This document shows, in pieces, positions 6,052 to 23,112 of a stretch of DNA of 64,000 nucleotides; within the stretch, counting starts at the first letter, position 1, and each line of letters opens with the position of its first letter. The stretch is from the IMG/VR virus record IMGVR_UViG_3300030330_005471; one strand, 5' to 3'. The position numbers and the translations under genes are program-made. The notes under the pieces are model-generated. The model ran no database searches. It had not been told where the DNA came from and saw only the letters and a program-made list of their open reading frames with translations. The DNA is from a virus. Lineage: Duplodnaviria; Caudoviricetes.

Positions 6052-6756
6052 ATGTCAAATGATATGCAAACAATAATGGAGTCTTGGAGAAGAGCTAATG
6101 CCTTAAATGAACAACAAGAGTTAGAAAAATTCTTAGAAAGTCTGGATCAATTGGATGAAGGAGTGCTTGGTGATGTCAAAGGTTTGTTTGGTACAATCGG
6201 GCAACTAATAAAAAGAAAAGACAAAATACCATCTTTTGTGGCTCATATACATGATAAAATTATTATGCCATCCATAGAAAAAATAGAAAAAGTTTTGAAT
6301 TTGATAGAAGTGTCGTTTAAGTCAAAAACTGATCAAGACAGTTCCAATCTGTTGACAATTGCAAAGAAGATCGGAGAAGCAGTTGATAAAACTTACAATT
6401 TTCTTAAAAATATACCAAGAGGTTCGTGGAAAAAAGCAACAGCAGCAATAGGAATCGCCGTTGCTTTAAAATATATGGCTTTTAGCACATTGATAGAAAT
6501 TCCAATTGAAGAAGGGGCTAAACAGATTCTTCTATTTTTCAAGGAAGAGATAGTTGGTTTTGCACAGGATTTTCTAGGCGAAGCTCTCGTTGAAGCCCTT
6601 TCAGCAGCTTGGACAGGCGGTCTCCAAACATTTGTTTCATATTTATCTAAAATAGCAAAAGGTGTTTCTTTTGTAGCCCAAACCTTAGCTCCAGCTGTGG
6701 AGCCATTTCTAGCAGGCGATATTACTCTCACAAGATTCGAAGAAGAATTAAATTAA
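6052..6756 (+). CDS. hypothetical protein with MQxIMESWRR...LNE leader
   Basis: Leader resembles 19036..19749; own CTATTTA motif at 6026; hydrophobic helices in C-terminal half. Confidence 0.55.
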   Translation: MSNDMQTIMESWRRANALNEQQELEKFLESLDQLDEGVLGDVKGLFGTIGQLIKRKDKIPSFVAHIHDKIIMPSIEKIEKVLNLIEVSFKSKTDQDSSNLLTIAKKIGEAVDKTYNFLKNIPRGSWKKATAAIGIAVALKYMAFSTLIEIPIEEGAKQILLFFKEEIVGFAQDFLGEALVEALSAAWTGGLQTFVSYLSKIAKGVSFVAQTLAPAVEPFLAGDITLTRFEEELN

Positions 6757-6764
6757 GAAATAAT

Positions 6765-6792
6765 TTGACAAATATGTAAAACGTGTTATACT
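6765..6792 (+). promoter_or_regulatory. sigma70-type early promoter
   Basis: TTGACA-16nt-TATACT, TG extension, followed by GGAGG RBS. Confidence 0.75.
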
Positions 6793-6810
6793 AGAATTAC
6801 GGAGGATAAC

Positions 6811-7746
6811 ATGGAACAGAAACGAAAGATCGTTTCCGATATACTTGGAGGGTATAATCGGAGAGGAAACGAACATCTATATCATTGCCCATATTGCAAG
6901 CATCATAAAAAGAAGATGTCTGTCAACTTTGCACAAGGCGTATTCAAGTGTTGGGTTTGCGATACTCGCGGCAAAAATATTTACAGAATAGTTAGAAAGT
7001 TTGGTAACTACAACCAAAGACAAAAGTGGTTAGAACTCGAAGGTCGTTTGGACCTCACAGAGTTCGACAAACTTTTTAACGAGATAAACGAAGTAGAGAT
7101 CGAACAAGTTATCGACTTGCCAAAAGAAATGATCTCACTTTGTAACAAACATCTCCCAAGATCATCGCAGAGACCTTTGGACTATTTGCGAGACCGAGGA
7201 ATATCCATGGAGCAGATAAAGCTTTGGAAAATAGGCTACTGCCCAGAGGGAAGATACGGAGGCCGTATCATTATCCCATCATTTAATATGAACGGAGACG
7301 TTAACTATTTTATTGCACGTTCATATGTGGGACATAAAAGAAAATATCTCAACCCTTTGGCTTCCAAGGATATTATATTCAATGAACTTATCATTGATTG
7401 GGATGAACCGGTGGTTCTTGTCGAAGGCGTCTTTGATGCTCTCGTTGCAGGAACTCAAGCCATCCCTATCCTCGGCTCCACCTTAAGGACCAACTCTCGC
7501 CTATTCCAAGCCCTTTCTATCAATGATACACCAGTGTACCTAGGACTCGACGCAGACGCCGAGAAGAAGGCTTCTTGGATGATTAAAAGCATGTTAGAAT
7601 ATGACATGGAGATCTACAGAATAGACACATCAACAGTTGAAGATATTGGTTCAATGTCCGAGAGACAGTTCTACAATGCCTTTCAGAATGCCGAACCAAT
7701 AGAATCCGACTTCTACTTTTTTGAGCGAATGATTAGCAGAATATAA
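6811..7746 (+). CDS. dnaG: DnaG-type DNA primase
   Basis: Zn finger CPYC...CWVC, YLRDRGI, RIIIP, KYLN, TOPRIM VEGVFD and LDADA. Confidence 0.9.
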   Translation: MEQKRKIVSDILGGYNRRGNEHLYHCPYCKHHKKKMSVNFAQGVFKCWVCDTRGKNIYRIVRKFGNYNQRQKWLELEGRLDLTEFDKLFNEINEVEIEQVIDLPKEMISLCNKHLPRSSQRPLDYLRDRGISMEQIKLWKIGYCPEGRYGGRIIIPSFNMNGDVNYFIARSYVGHKRKYLNPLASKDIIFNELIIDWDEPVVLVEGVFDALVAGTQAIPILGSTLRTNSRLFQALSINDTPVYLGLDADAEKKASWMIKSMLEYDMEIYRIDTSTVEDIGSMSERQFYNAFQNAEPIESDFYFFERMISRI

Positions 7747-7755
7747 AAAAATAAT

Positions 7756-7784
7756 TTGACAAATCTCACGCGATGTGTTATAAT
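7756..7784 (+). promoter_or_regulatory. sigma70-type early promoter
   Basis: AAAAAATAAT-TTGACA-17nt-TATAAT with TG extension. Confidence 0.85.
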
Positions 7785-7812
7785 AAATCACATAAGTAAT
7801 CACGGAGGATAT

Positions 7813-10800
7813 ATGACTTATAAGATAGCCCATTTTGCGGATACACATATTCGTAATCTTAAATACCACGAAGAGTATCGTTTTGTTTTCAAACAAATGT
7901 ATCAAAAGCTTCGAGATCAAAAGGTTGATATGATCGTTCACTGTGGTGATCTCGCTCATACAAAGACTCAACTATCACCAGAATATTTTGCCTTAGCAGC
8001 AGAGTTTCTTAAGAACTTGGCGGACATCGCACCAACCTATATTATATTAGGGAACCACGATGGAAACCTCAAGAACTCTGGTAGAGAAGATGCTATTACA
8101 CCAATAGTGGAAGCACTAGAGCATCCGAGCCTTCACTTGCTCAAAGACTCTGGCAATCATAGAGTTGATGCTGGTCTGTCGTTTAACGTGCTTTCCATAT
8201 TTGACAGAGAAAACTGGGAAGAACCTGATACTAATGGTATTAACATTGCTCTGTATCATGGAGCTGTAATGGGTTCCACAACTGGTACTGGATGGGCCAT
8301 GGAACACGGAGATGATGATGTCTCTGTATTCAAAGGTCATGACTTTGCTATGCTTGGAGATATCCATAAACCGCAAATACTTGATACGGAAGGTCGTGTG
8401 CAATATGCTGGCTCGACCGTGCAGCAGAATTTTTCGGAAGGAACTCGTAAAGGATATAAACTATGGCATATCGATTCAAAAGACAAATTCAACGTACAAC
8501 ACGTCACATTTGTGTCTCCTCGTCCGTTCATGACCATTGACTTAGACAAGAGCGGTAATGTGCCTGAACATTATCATATACCCCGTGGTGCAAGACTCAG
8601 GCTTATTTCTCGCACCAACTTACCATCAACAAAGATACGTCAGGTTACAGATCTAGCCCGTTCTAAGTATAATCCGACTTCTGTTACCTTTGTTGATAAA
8701 AGCACATCAGAATTCACATCCTCGCTTGGAGAAACACAAAAGATGGAGAACCTTCGCGATCTCTCGGTGCAAGAGCGTTGGATTCGAGAATATTTAAAAG
8801 AATATGAACTTGATGAAGAAATAATGCAAGAAGTACTTGATCTAAACTCTAAATACAATAAGGAAGCAGAAAAGAATGAAGAAGTCAGAAGAAACGTCAC
8901 ATGGAATATTAAAGAGATGCGGTTTGAAAATCTTTTCAATTATGGATCGGGCAATAACGTGGACTTTACAAAACTCTCTGGAATTGTTGGCATATTTGGC
9001 AGGAACTACAGTGGCAAATCTTCTGTTATTGATTCTGCTTTGTATGGCCTTTTTAATACAACCTCCAAGGGGGAAAGAAAGAACGTTCACATCGTCAATC
9101 AAAATAAAAGCAACGCAAGCATACGAATGGTTGTCGAAGCAGATGGCCAAGAGTATCAAATATCTCGGAATCTTAATAAATCTAGTAAGACCGTCAAAGG
9201 AAAGTCCGTCATTAGTGCCTCTGGGGATCTTGATTTCCACAATCTCACTACCGATAGTTCTTGCAATGGCGATTCTGTAAAAGACTCCGATAAGAACATC
9301 CGCAAAGTCTTTGGCTCAATTGACGACTTTATGATTACATCTATGGCTTCTCAAATGGATTCTCTCTCGTTTATCAAAGAAGGTTCCACGAAGCGTAAAG
9401 AGATTCTTGCAAAGTTTCTTGACCTCGAGATCTTTGATCAGAAGTTTAAGTTAGCAAAGAAAGACTCTGCTGATATAAATGCTCTTATAAAAAGATTCAA
9501 GAACAAAGAGTTGGGGAAACAACTTACAATCAAACAAGAGACTATTGAAGAGATACATGATGATATAGATAAGCAAACAGATCTTTGTAAGAAACACACC
9601 AGTCGTTACGAAGAATTAGCAGCAGAATTTGCCAAGATAAACGAAGAAATTTCGTCTATCCCTACAGAAATTGTGGACATTCATGAAATTGAAGACGCAA
9701 TTGCTCAAAGGTACGATGACATCACAAGTGCTGAAAAAACAACTGTTTTATACAAGGCTACAATAGAAAAGAATAGGGAAATAGCGAACGAACTGTTAAC
9801 TCATATATCTTCTCTTTCTCATGAGCGTCTTGAAGCCTTAGAACAGTCTTGGAAGGATTATAACAAGAAGTATGTTGAAAACGAACAAGAGTTAAGCACT
9901 CTTGCTATAAAGAAAAAGAACACAATGAAAAAGATAAGAATGCTGGACAATCATGAATATGATCCCGACTGCCGTTTTTGTTCTGATAATAAATTTGTAA
10001 AAGACGCAAACAAAGCAAAAGAGGCATTACCGTCCATACAAGAAGAGATAAACACTTTGACTTCAACTAACGAAGAGTTGCTAGAGAAGATGAATTTTTT
10101 GGATATTGATTCTATACGTGCTGATCTTCAAAAGCACGAGAAACTTACAAACAGAAAGAACACTCTTTTATCTGAAGCTAAAAACCTAGAAATAAAAGCG
10201 GAATCTCTATCATCAAAGGTTTCACTATACAAGAACGAATTGGCTTCTTTGAAAGAGAAGCAAGAGGAGTATGAAGCCAATAAAAATGCTATTGAAAACC
10301 TTTCATCATTGGTGAGATCTGCACAAGCGGTAGAGATAAAGATGCTTGATGCAAAACAGCGAAAGGAAAGGTGTGACAAAAAGATACAAGACTATCTTGT
10401 CGAACTAGGCTCAGTTAAGCATTCCATAAAGACCATACGCTCAGAGAAAGCGGAGCAGGATGCCTTGGAAGGTGAGTGGATTGCTTATGATCTTTTTATG
10501 AGGTGTATGCATGCAAACGGCATTGCTTATGAAGTTATTAAGCAAAAACTACCGGTTATCAACGAAGAGATTCAAAAATGTTTGTCTACTATTGTCGACT
10601 TTGAAATTAACTTTGAAGAACACGGAAGAAACCTTGATATAAATATTAAACACCCAAATTATGAGTCTCGCCCCATCTCTATGGGCTCCGGAGCAGAAAA
10701 GACTATTGCTGCTATGGCAATCAGACTTGCTCTCATTGAGATAACAAATTTACCCAAGTCTACACTATTTATTATGGATGAACCAGCCACAGCTCTTGAT

Positions 10801-10956
10801 CAAGAACATATGGAGGGTTTTATTAGACTTTTGGAGATGATTAAAACAAAATTCAAAACTATTCTTTTAATATCGCATTTAGATGTTCTCAAAGATTGTG
10901 TTGATACGACAATCGATATCCAAAAGCACAATGGTTATGCCAAGGTGAATGTTTGA
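7813..10956 (+). CDS. fused Mre11/SbcD nuclease - Rad50/SbcC ATPase (T4 gp47+gp46-like)
   Basis: Start moved to ATG 7813 after GGAGG. Phosphoesterase motifs ADTH, GDLAH, GNHD, GDIH; Walker A GRNYSGKS; coiled coil with CRFC zinc hook; Walker B FIMDE; ISH switch. Confidence 0.9.
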   Translation: MTYKIAHFADTHIRNLKYHEEYRFVFKQMYQKLRDQKVDMIVHCGDLAHTKTQLSPEYFALAAEFLKNLADIAPTYIILGNHDGNLKNSGREDAITPIVEALEHPSLHLLKDSGNHRVDAGLSFNVLSIFDRENWEEPDTNGINIALYHGAVMGSTTGTGWAMEHGDDDVSVFKGHDFAMLGDIHKPQILDTEGRVQYAGSTVQQNFSEGTRKGYKLWHIDSKDKFNVQHVTFVSPRPFMTIDLDKSGNVPEHYHIPRGARLRLISRTNLPSTKIRQVTDLARSKYNPTSVTFVDKSTSEFTSSLGETQKMENLRDLSVQERWIREYLKEYELDEEIMQEVLDLNSKYNKEAEKNEEVRRNVTWNIKEMRFENLFNYGSGNNVDFTKLSGIVGIFGRNYSGKSSVIDSALYGLFNTTSKGERKNVHIVNQNKSNASIRMVVEADGQEYQISRNLNKSSKTVKGKSVISASGDLDFHNLTTDSSCNGDSVKDSDKNIRKVFGSIDDFMITSMASQMDSLSFIKEGSTKRKEILAKFLDLEIFDQKFKLAKKDSADINALIKRFKNKELGKQLTIKQETIEEIHDDIDKQTDLCKKHTSRYEELAAEFAKINEEISSIPTEIVDIHEIEDAIAQRYDDITSAEKTTVLYKATIEKNREIANELLTHISSLSHERLEALEQSWKDYNKKYVENEQELSTLAIKKKNTMKKIRMLDNHEYDPDCRFCSDNKFVKDANKAKEALPSIQEEINTLTSTNEELLEKMNFLDIDSIRADLQKHEKLTNRKNTLLSEAKNLEIKAESLSSKVSLYKNELASLKEKQEEYEANKNAIENLSSLVRSAQAVEIKMLDAKQRKERCDKKIQDYLVELGSVKHSIKTIRSEKAEQDALEGEWIAYDLFMRCMHANGIAYEVIKQKLPVINEEIQKCLSTIVDFEINFEEHGRNLDINIKHPNYESRPISMGSGAEKTIAAMAIRLALIEITNLPKSTLFIMDEPATALDQEHMEGFIRLLEMIKTKFKTILLISHLDVLKDCVDTTIDIQKHNGYAKVNV

Positions 10957-10967
10957 GAGGGTAGGAT

Positions 10968-11291
10968 GTGGATAAAGAAAGATTCCTAAAACAAATAGAG
11001 GAATATATGATGGAACAAAGAGATAAATTAGAAAATGCTAAAGAAGAGATTCAAGAGGCAGTTGTAGAACTTGATCTTAAAAAGAAACTTTATTTAGAAA
11101 ATCCAAAAAAAGGAGTGCTTGATGCTGTTCAAGAAAAGATGGTTTCTAGAAAGCTTCTTGTTTTTATTAGTGCAACAGCACTTTTAGCATCCGCACAGTT
11201 AGACCCTGATACTTGGGGAATGATTGCGATGATGTATATTGGCGGACAAACTGCTGTTGACTTTGCAAAGATGTGGAGACATGGATCGTGA
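10968..11291 (+). CDS. putative holin-like membrane protein
   Basis: C-terminal SRKLLVF...WGMIAMMYIGGQ with two hydrophobic segments; start may be ATG 11007. Confidence 0.45.
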   Translation: MDKERFLKQIEEYMMEQRDKLENAKEEIQEAVVELDLKKKLYLENPKKGVLDAVQEKMVSRKLLVFISATALLASAQLDPDTWGMIAMMYIGGQTAVDFAKMWRHGS

Positions 11292-11602
11292 AACTAACAA
11301 CAGAACTTTTAGAAGAAATGGTTGTGGTTGTTATGGAAAGCAACAAGGTTGATCCCTCAAAGGTGCTTACGTTTCACAATCAAATGTCAAGTATAATGGG
11401 CAGTGGGAATTGGCTATTCAAACCTGTCGTTTATACAGATACAGGAACAGGTAGAAAGGATGAAGAAGCCAATCTTATCGCTGACCTTAATGCAATGGCA
11501 ATAGAAGCTGGAAAAGGCAACCAAGAAAAGGCAAATGAATATGTTAGCACAATCTTGCCTTTTATAAAAGATGAAGAATACTTTTACACTATGATAGGAT
11601 AA
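11288..11602 (+). CDS. hypothetical protein with MKLTTELLEEMV leader
   Basis: GTG start overlapping previous stop, GGAG upstream; leader resembles the MKITxEQL family. Confidence 0.55.
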   Translation: MKLTTELLEEMVVVVMESNKVDPSKVLTFHNQMSSIMGSGNWLFKPVVYTDTGTGRKDEEANLIADLNAMAIEAGKGNQEKANEYVSTILPFIKDEEYFYTMIG

Positions 11603-11606
11603 ATAA

Positions 11607-11942
11607 ATGCTTTGGTTAAATAAAACAAAAAACTGGATAAAGGCTCATTGGAACTGGTTAGCTCTTCTGACTCTTGCAGCCATTGCCTACTTTTTAGGAA
11701 GAAAAGATTCAGCAAACTTGTTGGCTCATGCAAAGATTGCCAAAGAACAGTATAAAAAAGATGCTGAAGAAGTGGAGAAGGCTGTGCAAGAAAAAGACAA
11801 GCGAGATAAAAAGATCGATAATAGAAAAGAAGAAATCAAAAAAGCATTGATCGAAGAAAGAGAAAGAAAGTTAAAACTTGTTGCTGAAGAGAAAGTAGAT
11901 GCCGACGAGGTGTTTCAAGATTTGGGGATTAAAAAGAAATGA
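11607..11942 (+). CDS. membrane-anchored coiled-coil protein (spanin-like candidate)
   Basis: One N-terminal TM segment then charged coiled coil; near holin-like gene. Confidence 0.35.
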   Translation: MLWLNKTKNWIKAHWNWLALLTLAAIAYFLGRKDSANLLAHAKIAKEQYKKDAEEVEKAVQEKDKRDKKIDNRKEEIKKALIEERERKLKLVAEEKVDADEVFQDLGIKKK

Positions 11943-12334
11943 TTTTACTATTATTGTCATCGTTAGCTTGGGGAAGCCTTCCCGAGTATACATACATAGA
12001 AGCAGGAGAGCCAGCACCATTTTCAGGAAGGCTGTTCAATGATGCAGCTGCTGATATTCTAGCTGAGCAGATTGAAATGGGCCCTAAAGAGTGTCAAATA
12101 AACTTAGAATACCAGCTCGGAGTTCAACAAGCAGAACACCGTCAAGCAATTGAAAAACTAAAAAGTTCCCACAAGTTCGATATTCAAATCCTTGAAGCAG
12201 AAGTCAAAGCAAAAGAGACAAGAATAGAGTCTTTGGAAGAACTGAAAACTCCACCAAAAAAGAAACTTTGGTTTTCTTTGGGACTAATTACTGGAGTAGG
12301 AACTACAATAGCGATAGCAAATGCGGTAAACTAA
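11939..12334 (+). CDS. exported coiled-coil protein with C-terminal TM (spanin-like candidate)
   Basis: Signal peptide MILLLLSSLAWG, coiled coil, C-terminal hydrophobic segment; overlaps previous gene. Confidence 0.35.
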   Translation: MILLLLSSLAWGSLPEYTYIEAGEPAPFSGRLFNDAAADILAEQIEMGPKECQINLEYQLGVQQAEHRQAIEKLKSSHKFDIQILEAEVKAKETRIESLEELKTPPKKKLWFSLGLITGVGTTIAIANAVN

Positions 12335-12335
12335 C

Positions 12336-12995
12336 ATGAAAGTAAAAATAGTAAAAGAACAAGCCCGTGTGCATAGAACTCTTTTTGTTTTTGATTTTGA
12401 TGATACACTCGCCCACACAGATTCTGTGGTTGTGCTACAAAGAGACAATCAAGCGATAGAATTAGATTCTGGTGCGTTTGCTTCATACGAACACCAACCC
12501 GGCGATCAACTTGATTTTTCAGACTTTGGTCGAGTCGAAGGGAGTTTAATAGCAAATACACTAGCAATACTTAGCGACATACAAAATAAAGACAAGGATG
12601 CTGTGATTATAACGGCACGACCACCACAGGCAATTGAAGGAATACAAAAGTTTTTTGCCGATAACAACATGTCATCTCCTCCAATATATGCAACAGCAGG
12701 TTCTGCGAACAAACCACAGGTCATGAAAGAACTGCTAAAAACCAATAGATATAGCCATGTTGTTGTTTATGAAGACTGTATGGACAATATTCAAGTTTTA
12801 GGCGATGCTGTAAGAAGCATGGGTGTTTCGTATAGTGCATTGTGTATCAATAAAGACACCACAATACAAAAAATTTATCAAGAAAGCAATATCAAATTAA
12901 CAAAACAACAGCTAACAAAGATAATCAGAGAGGAGCTTAAAGTAATTTTAAATGAGGTAAACTATGAAAAAGAAAGATCCAAACTATGCTGTTAA
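12336..12995 (+). CDS. HAD-superfamily phosphatase
   Basis: Motif I FDFDDTL, motif II IITAR, motif IV YED; C-terminal IKLTKQQLTKIIREEL leader-like segment. Confidence 0.75.
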   Translation: MKVKIVKEQARVHRTLFVFDFDDTLAHTDSVVVLQRDNQAIELDSGAFASYEHQPGDQLDFSDFGRVEGSLIANTLAILSDIQNKDKDAVIITARPPQAIEGIQKFFADNNMSSPPIYATAGSANKPQVMKELLKTNRYSHVVVYEDCMDNIQVLGDAVRSMGVSYSALCINKDTTIQKIYQESNIKLTKQQLTKIIREELKVILNEVNYEKERSKLCC

Positions 12996-13338
12996 AGTCG
13001 AACAAGCAATAGTTAAAAAGTACGGTGAAGAAACAGTCCAGCACCCAAAGAACAATTGGACTGACGAAAAAGAACGAGAATACGTCAAACAATTGAAAGA
13101 CCTCTATAACAACAGAGGCGAGGAAGAACAAGAACACGTTGAAGTTAATGGAGTTTTTGTTTCAAATAAACTATTTACAAAAGAAACCAAGCGTTCTTGC
13201 CCGGTTTGTAATACATATTCTTTTAAATCTAATGATGATGTTTATATGTCAAAGTTTGATTGTTGTGAAAAATGTTACATTCAATGGGTCGAAGGTCGTG
13301 AGGATCGATGGCAAAAAGGATGGAGACCAAATGAGTAG
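12964..13338 (+). CDS. hypothetical Zn-binding protein
   Basis: GAGG RBS; CPVC...CCEKC motif. Confidence 0.6.
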   Translation: MKKKDPNYAVKVEQAIVKKYGEETVQHPKNNWTDEKEREYVKQLKDLYNNRGEEEQEHVEVNGVFVSNKLFTKETKRSCPVCNTYSFKSNDDVYMSKFDCCEKCYIQWVEGREDRWQKGWRPNE

Positions 13339-13870
13339 TACAACATTAGAAATTATACAAGGCCTTGCTCAAGCAGCAGCCAATGCTTATGATGGAGCAC
13401 ATGATGAACGTTATGTGAGACCTGACGAAGTTAAGAGCATGGGACTCAAAAGAGAAAATGGTTGTCCTTTGGTTGATTCTAGGGTTGTTGATGGATTTTC
13501 TGTTAAGTTCTATGGAAACAGATTGTGTTTATCTTACCAATCAGATGTTTTACTTAAAGATGTATATGCGAACAATTTTGCTGGGGATATTGATCGACAA
13601 ATGAATGAGATCAAAAAGTTCTTACAAAAAGAATATAAAAAGATCACTGGTAATTCTGTTACTCTTACAAAAGACGGAGAAGCAGATGTATTGGTTCAAT
13701 CAACTTCCAGAGTTCGCTCTTTCTGCAATGCCAAGCAGCATTATAAGATATCAGGCATCAAGGAGCTCCCACAGCTCGAACCGGCCATCGAAGATTCAAG
13801 AAAAATAACAAGAAAATTTTTAGATCAATTCTCCACTAAAAGACCAAAGAATGATACACGCAAGTCATAA
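13331..13870 (+). CDS. hypothetical protein
   Basis: Start moved to ATG 13331 after GGAG, overlapping previous stop. Confidence 0.6.
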   Translation: MSSTTLEIIQGLAQAAANAYDGAHDERYVRPDEVKSMGLKRENGCPLVDSRVVDGFSVKFYGNRLCLSYQSDVLLKDVYANNFAGDIDRQMNEIKKFLQKEYKKITGNSVTLTKDGEADVLVQSTSRVRSFCNAKQHYKISGIKELPQLEPAIEDSRKITRKFLDQFSTKRPKNDTRKS

Positions 13871-13872
13871 AA

Positions 13873-14088
13873 ATGAAAATCACAACAGAACAATTAAAAC
13901 AAATTATCAAAGAAGAAGTAGCCAAAACATTGCATGAAAGTGTATCTGATCGAGAGAGAGGGAAGGATGATGGTTTGGAAGATGCTCAAGCAACAGAGAT
14001 GGGAATGCAAGTCTATGGACCTTCAGATATTAACAATCAAGAATATATGAAAGGCTACTTGGAAGGCAATCCAAATTATCAACCATAG
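13873..14088 (+). CDS. small protein with MKITTEQLKQIIKEE leader
   Basis: Leader shared with 20119 and 20505 genes. Confidence 0.6.
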   Translation: MKITTEQLKQIIKEEVAKTLHESVSDRERGKDDGLEDAQATEMGMQVYGPSDINNQEYMKGYLEGNPNYQP

Positions 14089-14094
14089 GGGCAC

Positions 14095-15678
14095 ATGACT
14101 CTTAAATTATCAAAACAGGAAATAGTAAAAGAGATCGTTAAGTCGGGAAAAGATCCAATATATTTTATAAATAACTATTGTAGGATCTCACATCCTCTTA
14201 AAGGACTTATTCCTTTTAACACATATCCTTATCAGGACGATCTTGTAAAGGACTTTAACGATTACCGCTTTACAGTTATTCTTAAAGCAAGACAGTTGGG
14301 TATCTCCACGATCTCAGCTGCTTATGCTGTTTGGTTTATGTTGTTTCACAAAGAGAAAAACATTCTCGTAATGGCAACAAAGTTTACAACAGCCGCCAAC
14401 TTGGTTAAAAAAGTCAAGATGGTAATGAAGAATCTTCCACCTTGGATGCAGGTAGCAAAGATCACAATCGATAACAGAAACTCGTTTGAGCTCTCAAACG
14501 GTTCGACTATCAAAGCCGTCGGAACATCAGCAGATGCTGGTCGTTCGGAAGCACTATCTTTACTCATTATAGACGAGGCAGCACACGTTGAAGGACTCGA
14601 AGAGCTTTGGGCAGGTCTTTACCCCACTCTGTCAACAGGGGGTCGCTGTATTGCTTTGTCAACGCCTATGGGGGTTGGGAACTGGTTTCATAGAACTTAT
14701 GTTGATGCCGAGAATGGAGACAACGAGTTTCATCCTGTCTCATTGCCTTGGGATGTTCATCCTGAGCGTGACCGCAATTGGTTCGAGAAAGAAACAAAGA
14801 ACATGTCTCGAAGACAAATAGCACAAGAGCTTGAATGCAACTTTAACACTTCTGGTGAAACTGTAATACATCCTGACGATATTCACTGGTTAACGTCTTT
14901 GGTGTGTGAACCAGAATACAGAACAGGTTGGGATAGAAATATGTGGATATGGGAGAAACACCAAGAAGGTGTTCCCTATCTTTTAGTTGCCGACGTTGCA
15001 AGAGGTGATGGAGCTGATTCTTCTGTGTTTCATATTCTGAGAACAGACACAATGGAAGTTGTTGCTGAATATCAAGGAAAGCCAACACTAGACCACTTTG
15101 CCCGCGTTCTAAACGACGCAGGAAAAGAATATGGTAATTGCTTGCTTGTTGTTGAAAACATTGGCATTGGCATATCTGTTTGCGAAAAGCTAAGAGACCT
15201 TGAGTATCCAAACCTTTATTATTCAATAAAAGGAACACACGAATATGTTGACCCTATTACCGGAGAGTATAGCTCTAATGCTGTTATGGGTTTCACAACA
15301 TCGTCGAAAACAAGACCTTTGATTGTTGCAAAGCTGGAAGAATATATAAGAAATAAATTGGTGAAGCCAAAATCTCAAAGACTTATCTCAGAAACTAAAA
15401 CTTTTATCTGGAACAATGGAAAACCACAAGCCATGAGGTCTTATCATGACGATTTGATAATGTCTCTTGCTATAGCTTGTTGGGTCAGAGATACAGCCCT
15501 TGAGGTCTCGGAGAAAGAGGTATTGTATAAAAAAGCAATGGTCAATGCTATGTATTCAACAGGAAAAACTATTAACACAGCAATTCCGGGTATGAAAGAG
15601 TATAGTCAAGAGTTTGAAAAGAAATACGAAGAAGAGATAAAGACAGCAACAGAATTTGCTTGGATTTTCAAGGGATGA
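14095..15678 (+). CDS. terL: terminase large subunit (gp17-like)
   Basis: Walker A KARQLGIST, Walker B LLIIDEAA, STP coupling motif, nuclease ADVARG and DDLIMS; precedes portal. Confidence 0.93.
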   Translation: MTLKLSKQEIVKEIVKSGKDPIYFINNYCRISHPLKGLIPFNTYPYQDDLVKDFNDYRFTVILKARQLGISTISAAYAVWFMLFHKEKNILVMATKFTTAANLVKKVKMVMKNLPPWMQVAKITIDNRNSFELSNGSTIKAVGTSADAGRSEALSLLIIDEAAHVEGLEELWAGLYPTLSTGGRCIALSTPMGVGNWFHRTYVDAENGDNEFHPVSLPWDVHPERDRNWFEKETKNMSRRQIAQELECNFNTSGETVIHPDDIHWLTSLVCEPEYRTGWDRNMWIWEKHQEGVPYLLVADVARGDGADSSVFHILRTDTMEVVAEYQGKPTLDHFARVLNDAGKEYGNCLLVVENIGIGISVCEKLRDLEYPNLYYSIKGTHEYVDPITGEYSSNAVMGFTTSSKTRPLIVAKLEEYIRNKLVKPKSQRLISETKTFIWNNGKPQAMRSYHDDLIMSLAIACWVRDTALEVSEKEVLYKKAMVNAMYSTGKTINTAIPGMKEYSQEFEKKYEEEIKTATEFAWIFKG

Positions 15679-15679
15679 C

Positions 15680-15719
15680 TTGACAAACCCTATACTTTAT
15701 GGTATAATATAACTATTTA
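15680..15719 (+). promoter_or_regulatory. sigma70 promoter plus adjacent CTATTTA late-type motif
   Basis: TTGACA-17nt-TATAAT (15680-15708), then CTATTTA 15713-15719. Confidence 0.7.
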
Positions 15720-15737
15720 TTACGAAAAGGAATAGCT

Positions 15738-17648
15738 ATGGCAAAATATAATAAAAAGTCGCCTTACAATCCACAGTCGGATTTGTTCAAGGCACTCACA
15801 AGACTTTTCTCTGGACCGATTACTCAAAGAAGAACACAAACCGGTCGAGCACTCAGAAGAAGAGACTTGGACATGTATGCAAAACGTTTTCGTTCGGCAT
15901 CGGGTCAACAGTTTAAAAAATGGGAGTACAACCCTATTAACAACCTCACACTTAACATGGTCTCCAATCGTAACCGTGCTGAGAGATATGTTGATTTTGA
16001 TGAAATGGAGTACGTTCCTGAGATTGCCTCTTCTTTAGATATATACGCCGATGAAATGACAACACACACTGATATTCGTGAAATGCTTCGAATAAAGTGT
16101 GCAAACGAAGAAATAAAACACATCCTTCACAATCTTTATCATAATGTTTTAAACATTGAACACAATTTGTTTGGATGGTGTCGTACGATGTGTAAGTACG
16201 GGGATTTCTTTTTATATCTTGATATTGATGAACAACTAGGAATCAGAGCAGCTATTGGTCTTCCTCCAAGAGAGATTGAAAGACTTGAAGGAGAAGACGA
16301 GACCAATCCAAATTATGTACAATACCAATGGAACTCTGCTGCTTTAACACTTGAAAACTGGCAGGTTGCTCACTTTCGTGTACTTGGTAATGATAAGCAT
16401 GCACCATATGGAACTTCTGTTCTTGAGCCGGCTCGACGCATCTATCGACAACTTATTCTTTTAGAAGACGCAATGATGGCTTATCGCATTGTTAGAGCAC
16501 CGGAACGCCGTGTATTCAAAATTGATGTTGGTGGTATTCCTCCACAAGAGGTTGAACAGTACATGCAAAAGGTTATGACCCAAATGAAGCGTCATCAAGT
16601 TGTTGATCCAAAGACAGGACGAGTTGATCTTCGCTACAATCCGATGTCAATTGAGGAAGATTATTATATTCCAATTCGTGGCGGAACATCCAGCACAGAC
16701 ATCTCTTCACTTCCGGGTGCCCAATTTAATGGCGGTATTGACGACGTCAAGTATCTTCGAGACAAATTATTTTCAGCTCTCAAGATACCACAGTCATACC
16801 TTACCATGGGAGAAGGAGCAACAGAAGACAAGACAACCCTCGCCCAAAAAGATATCAGGTTTGCAAGAACCATTCAGAGACTACAGCGTGTAGCTATAGC
16901 TGAATTGGAAAAGATAGGTATCATTCACTTGTATACTCTCGGATATAGACAAGACGATTTATTATCATTTAAACTTAAACTAAATAATCCTTCAAAGATT
17001 GCTGAGCTACAAGAGCTTGAACATTGGAAACAAAAGTTTGATATCGCAGGAGCTGCAACTGAAGGTTATTTCTCAAAACGATGGATTGCTGAGAATCTTC
17101 TCGGAATGTCTGAGGATGAGTTTCTTCGCAACCAACGAGAAATGTTCTTCGATAAGAAGTATTCCGCCAAACTTGAAGCTGCCACCGCAGGTGGAGAAGC
17201 GGCTGAAGGAGAAGGTGGAGGCGGCGGACTTGCCGGTGGTCTTGGAGACCTCGGTGGAGCCGAAGGTGACCTCGGTGGTGACCTTGATCTCGGAGGGGAA
17301 GGCGAGGACATTGCTGGGGAAACCGGCGGTGACGAAGGGGGTGATACTGATCTCCTCGCTGAACCTCCACCCGCTAAACGAGATGACTTTAAATTTGTCG
17401 AGCCTCCCGCTCTTTTCAAGAAGAGCAAGAAAGGTGGCATAACAAAACACCTTAGAAACACTGCTAAAGGCGGAGAACATGGAACAACAAAGAGAACTGC
17501 ATTTCCGGGCGGATATGGCTACGGAAGTTTAAATTCAATGCACGAACAGATGAATCAAGACGAAGACAAGTTGTTTGCTGTCTCTCGTGATATTGAAGTC
17601 TTACTAGAAGGTTTATTCAACAAGGAGAAACAAGATGAAACACAATAA
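15738..17648 (+). CDS. portal protein (gp20-like)
   Basis: LEDAMMAYRIVRAPERRVFKIDVG, EDYYIP, DDVKY, LKIP motifs; Gly/acidic low-complexity tail. Confidence 0.93.
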   Translation: MAKYNKKSPYNPQSDLFKALTRLFSGPITQRRTQTGRALRRRDLDMYAKRFRSASGQQFKKWEYNPINNLTLNMVSNRNRAERYVDFDEMEYVPEIASSLDIYADEMTTHTDIREMLRIKCANEEIKHILHNLYHNVLNIEHNLFGWCRTMCKYGDFFLYLDIDEQLGIRAAIGLPPREIERLEGEDETNPNYVQYQWNSAALTLENWQVAHFRVLGNDKHAPYGTSVLEPARRIYRQLILLEDAMMAYRIVRAPERRVFKIDVGGIPPQEVEQYMQKVMTQMKRHQVVDPKTGRVDLRYNPMSIEEDYYIPIRGGTSSTDISSLPGAQFNGGIDDVKYLRDKLFSALKIPQSYLTMGEGATEDKTTLAQKDIRFARTIQRLQRVAIAELEKIGIIHLYTLGYRQDDLLSFKLKLNNPSKIAELQELEHWKQKFDIAGAATEGYFSKRWIAENLLGMSEDEFLRNQREMFFDKKYSAKLEAATAGGEAAEGEGGGGGLAGGLGDLGGAEGDLGGDLDLGGEGEDIAGETGGDEGGDTDLLAEPPPAKRDDFKFVEPPALFKKSKKGGITKHLRNTAKGGEHGTTKRTAFPGGYGYGSLNSMHEQMNQDEDKLFAVSRDIEVLLEGLFNKEKQDETQ

Positions 17649-18444
17649 GAAAAGAAATACCGCTTTTCTTTACGAATGTCTTATAAAAGAAATGACAAAG
17701 GCAATCGTACGAAAGGACGAGACCACAAAGCAAACAGTGGTTGAGATTCTAAAGAACAACTTCTCAAAAGGATCTCCGTTATACAACGACTTGCAACAAT
17801 ATAAACAATTGCTCGAGACTCAAAATCTTTCCGAAGAATTTGCAACACGTTTCATAACAGAAGTTAAAAACGATTGGAGTGAACTAGACAGGAAGGAAAT
17901 ATTCAATTGCCAGACTCAACTTATTAAACAAATAAACGAAACAGTCTCTTCAAACGTATTTAGTAACTTTGTTCCAAACTACAAAAACATAGCCACAGTT
18001 GGCTCATATTTCTATTCTAAAGGCTCTAAACCAAAAGTTAGACTGTTGATAGAGGATAGAGTAAAGACGCTTGTTATTTCACAAGCTAGAGCCTCTAAAG
18101 AGGAAGAAATGAAACCATTGGATAGTCTCACATATAAAACTTTTATCAATAAGTTCAATGAAACATACCAACATACTTTAAGAGATGAACAAAGAGGTTT
18201 ATTAACAAATTATATCACATCCTTTTCCGACAATGGCTTGGGTTTAAAATCGTTTATGAATGAAGAGATTGGTAGATTGAAGAGCGAAATACAAACGCTA
18301 GCTGAGACTAGTTACGGAGACAAGCTCCTCAAGGTAAAAGAAAAGCTTGAAGACTTTTCAAAACAGCCAATAAGTGAAGCCATGGTTAAGGATGTATTTT
18401 ATATTCAAGATTTAATTGCGGAGATCAATAAAAATGAAAGTTAA
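17635..18444 (+). CDS. hypothetical head-module protein
   Basis: AGGAG RBS, coupled to portal, helical. Confidence 0.6.
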   Translation: MKHNKKRNTAFLYECLIKEMTKAIVRKDETTKQTVVEILKNNFSKGSPLYNDLQQYKQLLETQNLSEEFATRFITEVKNDWSELDRKEIFNCQTQLIKQINETVSSNVFSNFVPNYKNIATVGSYFYSKGSKPKVRLLIEDRVKTLVISQARASKEEEMKPLDSLTYKTFINKFNETYQHTLRDEQRGLLTNYITSFSDNGLGLKSFMNEEIGRLKSEIQTLAETSYGDKLLKVKEKLEDFSKQPISEAMVKDVFYIQDLIAEINKNES

Positions 18445-19036
18445 CATATTACCACCTCAAGATATTGTAACCGTTGATCCTTTTGAAACAGTTAAGGTAA
18501 ATATCAAACCAACCATAAGCGTTGAGATCAAAGACTCAAACAAAAAACGCATTGATTTTGAAATGAACATGCGTAAAGCTTTGAATGGAGATCTGATGAT
18601 CTTTGATCATAAAGATATTGATATCATCGTAATGACAGAAAAGAAGAAAATTGTTGCATTTGCAAAGGACTTGATGTCTGAAGTTGTTTACGGAGCAGAG
18701 TCAAGACTTATGGAACATCTTCGACGTTCTGGAGTTATTGAATACGATTCTATTCAAGGCGGCAATGTATATGGTTCTTTGGAAGGAAAGTTGCACGATT
18801 CAACAGAAAGAGATTCTGTTAAGGTAGCTGTCTATCAAATTTCTGAATGGATGAAGGACGAGCTTCCTTATATTGAAGCAACAAAAGGTCACGATGAAAA
18901 TATGGAAGACGCTATACTTGATCCTAATGATAAGGACTCAACGGAGCTCGGCGAAGTTCCACATGCAGAAGAGAAAGGCTCTATTCGAGACCACAACATG
19001 TTTGCACCATATCTATACGGGAGGTACACTTACTAA
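18434..19036 (+). CDS. hypothetical head-module protein
   Basis: Start moved to ATG 18434 after GGAG. Confidence 0.6.
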   Translation: MKVNILPPQDIVTVDPFETVKVNIKPTISVEIKDSNKKRIDFEMNMRKALNGDLMIFDHKDIDIIVMTEKKKIVAFAKDLMSEVVYGAESRLMEHLRRSGVIEYDSIQGGNVYGSLEGKLHDSTERDSVKVAVYQISEWMKDELPYIEATKGHDENMEDAILDPNDKDSTELGEVPHAEEKGSIRDHNMFAPYLYGRYTY

Positions 19037-19749
19037 TGAAACTTATAATGGAAAACTGGAAGAGATTCCTTAAAGAAAGCGAAATGTATGATTATGAACC
19101 AGAAAAGTTTGGTCCATTATCTGTCTATCATGCTGACGCCGGTGAGTATGGACAAATTGTATTATATCATATGATGCCAAAGATTGGAGACAACCTTATA
19201 TACCTTGTCGGAACTCTGACATATGATTTGACTATGGAGCCTTGTGTACCAGAAACTTTTCAAGTATCAGCCGTATATGTTGAAAAGCTAGCTCGTGGAA
19301 ACAAGTATGCAAAACTAATGTATGATTTGGCTTTTTACATTGTTGGAGAAAAAGGCGCTGGTTTAACTTCCGATCACATGGTTGGTACAACCAAGATAGC
19401 AAAAGATAAGGCTTGGAACTATATCAACTCAGCAGAGAGCGAGTACAATAAAAGAAAAACCGATCAGGGAAATGCAAAATTCGATTACAATAACAGCACA
19501 CCAGATGATCCAAATGATGATTGCGATAGCGGTTTAGAAGGTAAAGAGATGGCAACAGATTATTCATATTCTATGGTTAACACCTCGGAGCCTGCTGCTA
19601 AGTACAAAATGTTAATTAGAAATCATCTTTTAAATATCAGATATCTTCGCGGTGGCAAGAACATGATGTGGTTAGAGAAGGAACTTACAAACAGAGCAGA
19701 TGAAGGCTTCAACAGAGCTCATCTCGAACAAACTTCTATAGAGGACTGA
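19036..19749 (+). CDS. GNAT-like protein with MKLIMENWKRFLKE leader
   Basis: VSAVYVEKLARGNKYAKLMY resembles the GNAT acetyl-CoA-binding motif A. Confidence 0.45.
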   Translation: MKLIMENWKRFLKESEMYDYEPEKFGPLSVYHADAGEYGQIVLYHMMPKIGDNLIYLVGTLTYDLTMEPCVPETFQVSAVYVEKLARGNKYAKLMYDLAFYIVGEKGAGLTSDHMVGTTKIAKDKAWNYINSAESEYNKRKTDQGNAKFDYNNSTPDDPNDDCDSGLEGKEMATDYSYSMVNTSEPAAKYKMLIRNHLLNIRYLRGGKNMMWLEKELTNRADEGFNRAHLEQTSIED

Positions 19750-19777
19750 TGTGACTTTTATTTACATGGAGATGAAA

Positions 19778-20119
19778 ATGGATTTGATATATTTTATTTT
19801 AACAGCCTATGGCTTGACTCAAATCTTGGTTTATTCCAAGATATTTGAAAAAATAAGGCCGGCTCGAGATCAATATGGGCTTATAGGTTATATGGCCAAC
19901 TGTTCAATGTGTATGGGTTTTTGGGTTGGTGTGTTTTTATTTTTAATTAACGGCTTTACAGAACTATTTACATTTGATTATAATGTAATAAATGCTTTTA
20001 TTTGTGGATGCGTTTCTGCTGGTACGTCTTATCTGATTTCAATGTTGGTAGATGACAGTGGTTTTAGAGGCCCACAGAAAGAGGTTAATTGTAACTGTTC
20101 ACAAAGGAGTAAACTATAA
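19778..20119 (+). CDS. small membrane protein (DUF1360-like)
   Basis: Three hydrophobic segments with CSMCMGFW motif. Confidence 0.6.
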   Translation: MDLIYFILTAYGLTQILVYSKIFEKIRPARDQYGLIGYMANCSMCMGFWVGVFLFLINGFTELFTFDYNVINAFICGCVSAGTSYLISMLVDDSGFRGPQKEVNCNCSQRSKL

Positions 20120-20165
20120 TGAAAATTACAAACGAACAATTAAGACAAATTATAAAAGAAGAACT
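20114..20165 (+). repeat. 52-bp exact direct repeat, copy 1 (leader-encoding)
   Basis: ctataatgaaaattacaaacgaacaattaagacaaattataaaagaagaact, identical to 20500-20551. Confidence 0.95.
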
Positions 20166-20490
20166 TGAGAACGTTCTTAACGAAACCATCCCTACTGATC
20201 CGGGCTTAGAAAGTATGCCTAGATCTTTTTGGACTGCTATGAGCGATCACACAGATAAGTGGCTAAAACAAAGTGGGCAAAAGTTAGCAACAGATAATCA
20301 ATTTTGGATATATTTTAACAACTTAAGAGGAAAACTTAAAGCAGTCATTGCAGATGATTCCGAAGTAAACATCAAAAATGCAAACACTGCTATGATTCCA
20401 TTGAGTACTTATTACCCAGAAGTTGCTCAAGAATTTATTTCAGGCGCCGAACAAACAAACAGTGGGCTTACATTTGGGAAAAATCCATAA
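20119..20490 (+). CDS. hypothetical protein with MKITNEQLRQIIKEELE leader
   Basis: AGGAG RBS; first 17 aa identical to next gene, remainder unrelated. Confidence 0.7.
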   Translation: MKITNEQLRQIIKEELENVLNETIPTDPGLESMPRSFWTAMSDHTDKWLKQSGQKLATDNQFWIYFNNLRGKLKAVIADDSEVNIKNANTAMIPLSTYYPEVAQEFISGAEQTNSGLTFGKNP

Positions 20491-20499
20491 AGAGGAAAT

Positions 20500-20551
20500 C
20501 TATAATGAAAATTACAAACGAACAATTAAGACAAATTATAAAAGAAGAACT
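20500..20551 (+). repeat. 52-bp exact direct repeat, copy 2
   Basis: Identical to 20114-20165. Confidence 0.95.
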
Positions 20552-21023
20552 CGAAGCGGTGATGAACGAATCTCCACTTCAATGGGTTTTAAACCAGAAA
20601 AGAAAACAAAATATGCAAAAAATGCCACCAGCACCAGAGGAAATAAGTGAGCCTTCTGGAAGAGACACTGGTGATTCTGAGTGGAGATCACAATATCTAG
20701 ATAAACAAGCTGATATGGAATACTCTCGACGTTCAGCCGCACTTCCTAAAGAAGTGTATGATATTTTAAAACCACAAGGTCTAAACGTACAACTTCAGAA
20801 TGGTGAACTTGTAGCAAAAGTTCTAGACCCAGACAGGCCCGGAAAGAAATTTATGATGCGCATACAACTTGACCCAAGATCGTCAGTTGAACAAAATGCT
20901 CAAGATGCTGTTGAACAAATTAGGCAAACAGATCCTAAAGCAACTAACCTTAGACAAGGTAAAAAAGCTGCAACTATTGATATTGCCGATCCGTTCATGG
21001 AAGGCAAAAGGAGAAAACAATGA
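20505..21023 (+). CDS. hypothetical protein with MKITNEQLRQIIKEELE leader
   Basis: GAGG RBS; shared leader. Confidence 0.7.
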   Translation: MKITNEQLRQIIKEELEAVMNESPLQWVLNQKRKQNMQKMPPAPEEISEPSGRDTGDSEWRSQYLDKQADMEYSRRSAALPKEVYDILKPQGLNVQLQNGELVAKVLDPDRPGKKFMMRIQLDPRSSVEQNAQDAVEQIRQTDPKATNLRQGKKAATIDIADPFMEGKRRKQ

Positions 21024-21070
21024 TTAAGTGGATGCTACAACCTGTTCGTCGCTGCTGCTCAGGTAGCTGA
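21020..21070 (+). CDS. 16-aa micropeptide MIKWMLQPVRRCCSGS
   Basis: AGGAGA RBS, ATG overlapping previous stop; below the ORF-track size cutoff. Confidence 0.5.
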   Translation: MIKWMLQPVRRCCSGS

Positions 21071-21106
21071 CTCAAGCGGGTGGTGCCCGTTTATTTGGAG
21101 AAAAAA

Positions 21107-21739
21107 ATGAGTAAACAATTATTAACAGAGTTTTTCGAATTATGTCCCAATGGACGCTGTCTTGATCTTTTAAGCGAGAGGCAAAAACAAGAGGTTATAA
21201 AAGAAGGTGCTGTTTATCTTACTGGTCGTATTCAAACGGCTGGAAAAAAGAACGGAAATGGACGAGTCTATCCAAAGAAAGTTCTGGAAAAGGAAATTAG
21301 AAATTATCAAAAAGTTGTCAAAGACAACAGAGCAACAGGAGAATTAGATCATCCTGATGATTCTGTCATTAATCTTAAGAATGTATCGCACTTGGTTGTT
21401 GAATGTTGGTGGCAAGGAAACGATGTAATGGGCAAAATAAAAGTTCTTGATACACCATCTGGTCGTATTCTAAAGGACCTTATAAATGCTGGTGTTAAGT
21501 TGGGAATCTCGTCCCGAGGATTAGGCTCGGTTAACGAAGATATAAATGGAAACTCCGTCGTAGGAGAAGACTTTCAACTTATTTGTTTTGATATTGTGTC
21601 AGAACCTTCAACTCCTGATGCTTATGTTTACCCAAATGAGAAGTCACACTCTATGAGTTCTGATATGTTTAAGGTTAAGATGAGAGAAAATAAAGAAAAC
21701 CAAATAGATAATCTATTTAGTAAGATATTGAGGGATTAA
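21107..21739 (+). CDS. prohead protease (gp21-like)
   Basis: NGNGRVYP, GELDHP, VSH, KLGISSRGLGS, FDIVSEPS motifs; ATG after GGAG. Confidence 0.93.
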   Translation: MSKQLLTEFFELCPNGRCLDLLSERQKQEVIKEGAVYLTGRIQTAGKKNGNGRVYPKKVLEKEIRNYQKVVKDNRATGELDHPDDSVINLKNVSHLVVECWWQGNDVMGKIKVLDTPSGRILKDLINAGVKLGISSRGLGSVNEDINGNSVVGEDFQLICFDIVSEPSTPDAYVYPNEKSHSMSSDMFKVKMRENKENQIDNLFSKILRD

Positions 21740-22153
21740 ATGAATAAAAACGAATTAAAGAAAATGCTTAAACCGTTGATAAAAGAGTGCATCAAAGAAG
21801 TCATATTCGAAGAAGGCACTCTTTCTTCAATCGTATCAGAAGTGGCACAAGGTTTAGGGCAACAAACGCTTGTCGAGTCCAAGCAAAAGTTTCCAACAAA
21901 GCAAAAACCACAATACGAGACAGACGAACAAGCAAAAATAAGACTTGATGAGCAAAGAAAAAAGATGATGGATGCAATTGGCGGAGACGCTTATAATGGC
22001 GTAAACCTTTTTGAAGGAACTACTCCGGCTCCAACACCACAACAACAAGGTCAAGGACCTCTAGATGGTGTTGCCCCAAATGATCCCGGAGTTGATATCT
22101 CTTCTGTTATGGGAAAATCATCAGCAATCTGGTCAAAAATGGTAGGTAAATAA
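21740..22153 (+). CDS. hypothetical head-module protein
   Basis: N-terminal MNKNELKKMLKPLIKECIKEVIFEE; CTATTTA motif at 21713. Confidence 0.65.
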   Translation: MNKNELKKMLKPLIKECIKEVIFEEGTLSSIVSEVAQGLGQQTLVESKQKFPTKQKPQYETDEQAKIRLDEQRKKMMDAIGGDAYNGVNLFEGTTPAPTPQQQGQGPLDGVAPNDPGVDISSVMGKSSAIWSKMVGK

Positions 22154-22359
22154 TGGGTATTAACTATTCAGTCAAGGTCCGAAGAAAGGACAATATTGAG
22201 CGTGTCATAAAGCGTTTTATAAAAAAATGTAAAAAGCTCGGAATCATTGACGAAGTAAAAGATAGAAGACATTACACTAAACCCTCGGAGAAAAGGCGAC
22301 GTGCAAAAGAACGTGCAATTCGAAGACGCAAGAAAGAAGAGAGAAAACGTAGAAAATAA
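22153..22359 (+). CDS. rpsU: ribosomal protein bS21
   Basis: 68 aa, basic; V.V...NIE..IKRF.KKC...GI..E...RRHY.KPSEKRR signature. Confidence 0.9.
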   Translation: MGINYSVKVRRKDNIERVIKRFIKKCKKLGIIDEVKDRRHYTKPSEKRRRAKERAIRRRKKEERKRRK

Positions 22360-22388: not shown

Positions 22389-22742
22389 ATGGCAAATAAT
22401 GTATATGGCGTAGGATTGAGAAATGTCGGCTCTTATCAAGTCGCAGGCTCTCCTTATCTTACAGCTTCCAATATAAACGATGAAGAGAAGATTTTTACCT
22501 TTCCTTATGTGACCAAAAGAATAATGGTTCATAACACAGGATCGGCAGATCTTTATTTATATTTTTCTGATTCTTCTGTGAACAAGTTGATTGTGCCAAC
22601 GACAAAAAAACTTGATATGGACGTCAAGTGCACTTCAATTTATGTTTCATCTTCAGCAGCAACAGGCATGCAGATGTTTGCTGAAGTTACGAATATTCCA
22701 ATTGGAAGAATGTATTCGTTTGATGGTTTGGAGGGTGTATAA
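22389..22742 (+). CDS. small virion protein, paralog 1
   Basis: MANNVYGxGLxNVGSYQV...TNIP..RM family; CTATTTA upstream. Confidence 0.6.
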   Translation: MANNVYGVGLRNVGSYQVAGSPYLTASNINDEEKIFTFPYVTKRIMVHNTGSADLYLYFSDSSVNKLIVPTTKKLDMDVKCTSIYVSSSAATGMQMFAEVTNIPIGRMYSFDGLEGV

Positions 22743-23110: not shown

Positions 23111-23112
23111 CA

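Follow-up and report, generated by a model that had tools for sequence, protein, structure and literature searches.

Phage T4 provides the closest described precedent for a short peptide that is shared by otherwise different proteins of the phage head. Its capsid-targeting sequences (CTSs) are N-terminal and 10-19 residues long, C-terminal propeptides are found on Alt and gp21, and its diverse internal proteins have the CTS alone in common (PMC9026906; PMC3012670). Here we describe a widely reused peptide tag in a stretch of 64,000 nucleotides (nt), the whole of which is called the window below, from the IMG/VR virus record IMGVR_UViG_3300030330_005471. The window, an AT-rich fragment (~38% GC) with every gene on the + strand, derives from an uncultured, T4-related marine phage, and the tag is most likely an enlarged version of the T4 'load into head, then clip' signal. 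Like the T4 CTS, it is a short sequence that begins with Met1 (MK...), is attached to rapidly evolving proteins with no other relationship and contains an (L/I)-x-E motif, while a gene for a gp21-family S77 protease is present and the gp23-like capsid protein has kept an L-x-E|A sequence. The tag also occurs at C-termini, as do the propeptides of T4 Alt and gp21, and some of the tagged genes occupy the slot between portal and protease. Unlike the T4 CTS, the tag is 14-22 residues long, occurs in more than 12,000 protein clusters, often with tagged genes arrayed in tandem and with more than one tag in a protein, and is known from sequence alone; its cargos are mostly acidic, whereas the T4 internal proteins IPI-III are small, basic and DNA-associated.

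Two further systems invite comparison. In the giant phages phiKZ, 201phi2-1 and SPN3US, many head-internal proteins, enzymes included, are cut after Glu by a T4-type prohead protease; to our knowledge, their propeptides are long and have no single conserved leader sequence, in contrast to the one short motif that is reused here. The cargo-loading peptides of encapsulins are short and portable, function at either terminus and direct unrelated enzymes into an HK97-fold shell. These peptides bind the shell protein directly and stay uncleaved, with no scaffold, portal or protease involved, whereas the present locus encodes a full tailed-phage head module (portal, S77 protease, probable scaffold and gp23-like capsid protein) and the two have no sequence relation.

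The principal form of the tag, type 1, is a motif of 22 residues, MKITKxQLKQIIKEEL..φ-x-E (φ, hydrophobic residue), common to the open reading frames (ORFs, named here by their start positions) 13873, 20119 and 20505 and to the C-terminus of the HAD-like protein 12336. A profile hidden Markov model (HMM) based on the four best copies was followed by a broader one based on 55 (alignment A1, consensus MKITKxQLKQIIKEELxxxxxE). When the window was translated in all six frames, both versions returned exactly four significant type-1 instances, with E-values from 6e-13 to 8e-7 (Table 1). The hydrophobic-x-E ending reported by the first-pass annotation is present in all four copies (LNE, MNE, LHE and LNE). 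The same annotation had listed at least eight ORFs with a similar segment, which proved too generous a count, as the rest of the list is made up of one clear copy of a different, type-2 leader (19036), one doubtful type-2 copy (6052) and two ORFs, 11288 and 21740, that match neither leader. The 6052 N-terminus (MSND-MQTIMESWRR...) has the 'MSxD/E' prefix usual in the type-2 family, and no orthologs of the gene were found among 155 loci; the sequence of 11288 (VKLTTELLEEMV) is unsupported by the profile, and no orthologs of it were found. The N-terminus of 21740 belongs to a separate conserved family that is leader-like without being a leader copy; it gives no score with the type-1 profile and, in hhalign against the leader, a probability of 37% over 8 columns. 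In this family E24 and E34 are invariant and stand in φ-x-E contexts. The complete relative G006 has an ORF with a canonical leader ~85 nt 3' of its S77 match, which is the same slot as that of 21740 by position only.

Table 1. Tag copies, leader-like segments and head-morphogenesis genes in the window.
Feature	Coordinates	Strand	Details
Type-1 leader MKITNEQLRQIIKEELENVLNE	20119..20184	+	HMM E 6e-13; gene 20119-20490, 123 aa
Type-1 leader	20505..20570	+	HMM E 3e-12; gene 20505-21023, 172 aa, slot directly 5' of protease
Type-1 leader	13873..13938	+	HMM E 1e-11; gene 13873-14088, 71 aa
C-terminal type-1 tag IKLTKQQLTKIIREELKVILNE	12897..12962	+	HMM E 8e-7; HAD-fold phosphatase gene 12336-12995
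52-nt stretch	20114..20165	+	Identical to 20500-20551, wobble positions included
Type-2 leader MKLIMENWKRFLKE, 14 aa, ends L-K-E	19036..19077	+	GNAT-like gene 19036-19749
Doubtful, degenerate type-2-like N-terminus MQTIMESWRRANALNE	6064..6111	+	Gene 6052-6756; type-2 HMM E 0.05, 13 bits
Segment of ORF 11288, MKLTTELLEEMV, not a significant leader copy	11288..11323	+	HMM E 25
Conserved gene just 3' of protease	21740..22153	+	N-terminal helix MKKxELKKxLKPLIKECIKEVIxEEG
Large terminase	14095-15678	+	~45% identity to the terminases of Flavobacterium phage immuto and Microcystis phage Mel-JY01
Portal	15738-17648	+	Hundreds of relatives in IMG/VR
Prohead core serine protease, T4 gp21 family, Peptidase_S77	21080..21739	+	Pfam PF03420, E 3.4e-35
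gp23-like major capsid protein with N-terminal propeptide	36939..38765	+	PHROG 138, E 1e-72
Probable gp22-type scaffolding protein	35887..36915	+	Acidic, helical, immediately 5' of the capsid gene

The proposal that a plug-and-play tag is carried by unrelated proteins is strongly supported by several lines of evidence. First, the relatives of the window, sampled as 80 portal-centred loci and searched together with it using a profile of positions 1-16 only, contain 57 unique copies, all of which begin at position 1, with Met or, in three of them, Val, and lie on the portal strand, most with a Shine-Dalgarno sequence on the 5' side. This profile scan for cargo diversity, the check that had been put forward with the proposal, yielded 54 cargos that fall into 52 BLASTP clusters, and the protein similarity ends at about residue 22. 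Next, a single HAD family is tagged at either end and thereby demonstrates that the tag is portable. Homologs with the same catalytic core (DFDDT...) have the tag at the C-terminus in the window and in the proteins P0007-10 and P0013-15, and at the N-terminus, with MKLTRKQLRRLIRES leading into the first strand, in P0011, 12, 17, 18 and 19. In the AlphaFold2 model of the window protein, the core (residues 14-182) is joined by a low-confidence linker (184-187) to a separate tag helix (190-217), and the HAD fold is confirmed by Foldseek with AphA, lipin and MDP-1 as the best neighbours. Finally, the adjacent copies 20119 and 20505 are identical over 52 nt that consist of 5 nt of start context and 15 full leader codons (47 nt, ending inside codon 16), which points to a recent duplication or conversion through the DNA of the tag itself.

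The same 52-nt identity, with its unchanged wobble positions, and the A-rich codons of the tag are what could be cited for conservation due to a function of the DNA or of translation initiation instead of the peptide, for example if the segment anchored recombination or enhanced expression as a 5' coding region. Such an origin is extremely improbable and has been largely refuted by the 57 copies, in which the residues are conserved and the synonymous sites vary: L8 is encoded by CTT in 21, CTA in 15 and TTA in 12 copies, and E15 by GAA and GAG in 27 each. Selection thus acts on the peptide. The hydrophobic periodicity is conserved as well, and copies at the C-terminus or in the interior of a protein cannot serve translation initiation.

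As for the individual cargos of the window, the AlphaFold2 model of 20119 consists of a leader helix (residues 5-22), a 12-residue linker (23-34) and a confident four-helix bundle (35-119), for which Foldseek found generic helical bundles only. A word-based homolog search gave just 3 orthologs beyond the query; the orthologs retain the leader and its LNE site, and the protein is recorded on a 183-kb contig. The BLAST similarity of 20505 to other proteins stops at about residue 23-30, and an Atlas search with its cargo part was uninformative. The 13873 cargo is acidic (isoelectric point (pI) 4.1), its gene lying immediately 5' of the large terminase. None of 6052, 11273, 13873, 19036, 20119, 20505 and 21740 could be assigned to a family by Pfam or PHROGs, and the GNAT likeness of 19036 is a lead that comes solely from the ESM Atlas, Pfam being negative. 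In an Atlas viral cluster (394 aa), 31% of the members have an Acetyltransf_1 (GNAT) domain and 26% have DUF2608, a family that is weakly matched by the HAD-like protein of the window; the GNAT-like (19036-19749) and HAD-like (12336-12995) proteins may be fused in this cluster and act together. Two other ideas about the HAD protein were rejected. A frameshift that would join its C-terminal tag to the next ORF (ATG 12964) is ruled out by the GAGG ribosome-binding site of that ORF and by the HAD homologs, which keep the C-terminal tag in frame. A split T4 polynucleotide kinase (Pnk), made up of a tagged kinase and the HAD protein, is unsupported, as PDB sequence searches gave P-loop GTPases or nothing and Pnk is not among the best neighbours of the HAD model; the sole trace of it is a weak match to PHROG 415.

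Outside the window and its closest relatives, 12,193 protein clusters (50% identity) among 1.84 billion representative proteins match the profile at E <= 1e-3, and the top matches have 2-4 tag copies each, one N-terminal and the others internal or C-terminal. The motif is essentially viral, since a degenerate exact DNA pattern for QLKQIIKEE[LIV] matched only 7 times, 6 of these on contigs of metagenome-assembled genomes, in 185,579 prokaryote genomes (596 Gb), as against more than 600 times in IMG/VR. A tblastn search with the 22-mer in 50,697 phage records had an uncultured 484-kb phage as its sole match. The motif was not found in T4 or in cyanophage S-CAM9, and immuto, the nearest relative in culture, has diverged versions of the tag (MKKSQLRQIIKEAL..., ...HKWQAKFLKE) on gp080, gp072 and gp069. 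The second leader, MKLIMENWRKFLxE, is 14 residues long and precedes at least 22 unrelated cargo clusters in the relatives; 29 of its 38 copies, as counted from the listing, have φ-x-E at residues 12-14. Four whole or near-whole genomes of the clade have ~3-11 tag copies per genome, and the phage LR756508.1 has 16. A literature search with the motif strings and with phage Mel-JY01 found nothing relevant.

Several smaller observations on the tag family may be added here. Proteins with 2-4 tag copies are numerous in metagenomes (P0023-P0172; L084:6124-7179), and 91 of 168 internal copies retain the Met of motif position 1. Internal copies are often preceded by 'ENK', in the manner of a translated ribosome-binding site plus spacer, which suggests that tandem genes have fused or that translation can start internally. 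There are also mini-ORFs of 33-35 residues that consist of the tag and a short, very basic tail (...SKPRRTAPPKKK; L001:6792-6890, L022:8303-8404 and L029:389-493). In immuto (L081), more shared N-termini ending in L/I-x-E are found on neighbouring genes (13615-14915 and 7659-8123), where M(A)(D/E)NF(N/D)L(R/K)(S/K)FL(T/V)ENKLT...LKE is shared by two genes and a further gene has MKKQILSEQFRRMQKLAGIITE.

From the tag and the protease gene that accompanies it we infer targeting to the head, cleavage and delivery, and we regard it as an even chance that the tag is a prohead-core address akin to the T4 CTS that is clipped by the S77 protease. According to this model, the tag, an N-capped amphipathic helix of 14-22 residues, would direct the tagged proteins to the scaffolding core of the assembling head, where the protease would cut at I12-x-E14 and/or at a φ-x-E at positions 20-22; once released, the cargo would be retained alongside the DNA inside the head and may pass into the next host. 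The tag is modular, in that it can be used at either end of a protein and in several copies, and would move from gene to gene by recombination within its own coding DNA. The second leader appears to do the same job.

The cut-site motifs are conserved. I12 and E14 of the type-1 tag are invariant, forming an I-x-E, and none of the 57 copies has Asp at position 14; in the T4 CTS, Asp at the cleavage position blocks processing and leaves targeting unaffected (PMC9026906). A second φ-x-E ends at position 22 in 25 and at position 21 in 9 of the 57 copies (34 together), and within the span 19-25 it is found in 37, in comparison with 3 to 14 copies for φ-x-D, K, Q, N, S, G or A in the same span (D 5, K 6, N 14). 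The region is followed by a linker rich in Gly, Asp, Ser and Pro. The S77 protease gene of the window, 21080-21739, is presumed to encode the enzyme that clips the tags, and S77 was found in every sufficiently complete tag-bearing genome checked, including all five of the long contigs whose tag arrays are distant from the head genes, and the 484-kb phage LR756508.1, in which several of the tag copies flank the protease gene. In addition, L57-R58-E59|A60 of the capsid protein aligns, in BLASTP against the T4 gp23 N-terminus, with L-T-E|A, the maturation site of gp23. Together, the protease gene, the motifs at 12-14 and 20-22, the capsid site and the co-occurrence of tag and S77 render the loading into proheads and gp21-type clipping proposed by the first-pass annotation plausible.

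The proposed clustering of tagged genes near terminase, portal and protease is evident in the window, where all four type-1 copies lie within 12.9-20.6 kb around these genes, and is partial across the relatives: of 75 loci retrieved via the tag alone, 46 have a terminase, portal or protease gene within 10 kb. The other 29 loci (~40%) are the first of several points that weigh against a capsid address. Apart from six with a single copy, these are mostly tandem arrays of 2-10 tagged genes, and the arrays stand in the replication module, with primase, PolA, gp32, RecA, DnaB and a 5'-3' exonuclease as the recurrent annotatable neighbours. Such a location fits early expression and weakens the argument from clustering near head genes. 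Likewise, one third of the copies have no φ-x-E at 19-25, no cultured phage among the 50,697 records has a close tag copy, and there is no detectable similarity to the T4 CTS MKTYQEFIAE, the resemblance being limited to the initial 'MK..' and the final 'I-x-E', nor does the leader profile match anything in the T4 genome. Most cargos are acidic (median pI 5.1, with 49% below pI 5 against 24% in the background), unlike the basic internal proteins of T4 (PMC9026906). They include enzymes of cytoplasmic type (P-loop kinase, RNase T-like exonuclease, GNAT-like protein) for which a need of packaging is not obvious. The T4 genes that encode CTS-bearing proteins are likewise not placed beside the head genes, so the replication-module arrays do not refute targeting.

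These arrays and the cytoplasmic-type enzymes would equally suit a docking helix that binds a partner other than the capsid, such as a hub protein of the phage or host, a chaperone, or itself in a coiled coil that assembles enzyme complexes, and that is never cleaved. The tag is amphipathic and N-capped with a broad hydrophobic face, and works at both termini and in multiple copies per protein, all of which agree with docking, as does the Atlas cluster in which GNAT and HAD-like proteins may be fused and cooperating. We nevertheless consider a docking role unlikely. A generic helix-helix contact predicts neither an invariant I12 and E14 with Asp never at position 14 nor an enrichment of φ-x-E at the end of the helix; moreover, two unrelated-looking leaders both have φ-x-E at 12-14, and tag and S77 occur together, with an enrichment of the tag around the head genes. 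In some relatives (L122:2585-3348 and L130:1540-2303), the slot that separates PolA from a gp32-like single-stranded DNA-binding protein is occupied by tagged-gene arrays; this slot lies at ~59.3-60.4 kb in the window.

Most cargos had no recognisable family in a scan of 53 + 85 + 31 proteins. The families seen comprise a pentapeptide-repeat protein, RNase T-like exonucleases, P-loop kinases of the AAA_33/zeta type, in which the tag leads directly into the Walker A strand, DUF6321, a YkuD protein with a peptidoglycan (PG)-binding domain, and a tRNA-ligase CPD-like domain. This assortment bears on a variant of the capsid address, in which the tag does target the prohead core and the cargos are expendable core or scaffold accessories comparable to T4 gp67, gp68 and gp22, degraded and expelled or left as peptides instead of being delivered as effectors. 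Many cargos are indeed small, acidic and often of low complexity, the multi-copy proteins are tagged at both ends of charged middles, the mini-ORFs have nothing beyond the tag and a basic tail, and in the window 20119 and 20505 sit in the portal-protease slot, the place of gp67 and gp68 in T4. Clear enzymes such as the HAD phosphatase, the P-loop kinases, the RNase T-like proteins and the YkuD protein with its PG-binding domain, as well as the pentapeptide-repeat protein, are difficult to reconcile with expendability; 20119 is predicted to be a confident four-helix bundle, and the extreme turnover of cargos suits an arms race better than a structural role. Taken together, we judge this variant quite improbable. 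The presence of a single leader on many unrelated downstream sequences also brings to mind the recognition leaders of modifying enzymes, as in ribosomally synthesized and post-translationally modified peptides. The cargos, however, are 50-600 residues long and some are folded enzymes, the tag occurs C-terminally and internally as well, and no radical-SAM or other maturase was found among the annotated window proteins and recurrent neighbours, many of the neighbours having no family assignment; we regard a leader of this kind as very unlikely.

A broader form of the capsid-address reading, which we put forward tentatively as possible, is that T4-related marine phages of a very large, uncultured clade (~100 to 480 kb) rely on an end-independent, recombination-mobile address to pre-load the virion with a changing set of proteins that would act in counter-defence before phage genes are expressed. 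The pre-loaded set would include enzymes (HAD phosphatase, P-loop kinase, exonuclease and GNAT) alongside pentapeptide-repeat and acidic proteins that resemble DNA mimics. Should the tag prove to be a capsid address, it would permit a listing, from sequence only, of proteins that reside inside the heads of ocean phages and are possibly injected. Head-loaded proteins are a class that is almost invisible to annotation and that includes known anti-restriction factors of T4; the more than 12,000 tagged clusters (50% identity), mostly of unknown function, would then amount to a catalogue of injected phage effectors. The tag functions at either end of a protein, and its tandem arrays hint at a simple way of exchanging cargos. 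Even if it is something other than a capsid address, the tag ranks among the short modules that marine phage proteins reuse most widely.

The head-morphogenesis block of the window is anchored by the terminase and portal genes (14095..17648). The N-terminus of the probable scaffolding protein 35887-36915 resembles those of the same-slot proteins of phages immuto and Mel-JY01, and a PHROG search gave no family match for it. A near-consensus sigma70-type promoter (TTGACA-N16-18-TAwAAT) is found at 15680-15737, in the 59-nt gap directly 5' of the portal gene, and a scan for T4-type late promoters (TATAAATA) gave no pattern 5' of structural or tagged genes, so that timing is not readable from promoters. 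Two genes past the prohead protease, 22153-22359 encodes a homolog of ribosomal protein S21 (Pfam Ribosomal_S21, E 6.8e-15), which many relatives, as well as Microcystis phage Mel-JY01, have at the same position. It is followed at 22389-25956 by three tandem paralogs with a common N-terminus, MANNVYG.GL.NVGSYQV.G.PY, and a common C-terminus, ..IP..RM...G.GV, the third of which has ~820 additional residues between the two. On the other side of the block, a single ORF of 1066 aa (7756-10956) is a fusion of an Mre11-like phosphoesterase (Metallophos) and a Rad50/SbcC-like ATPase (AAA_23, SMC_N), the T4 counterpart of which is two genes, 47 and 46.

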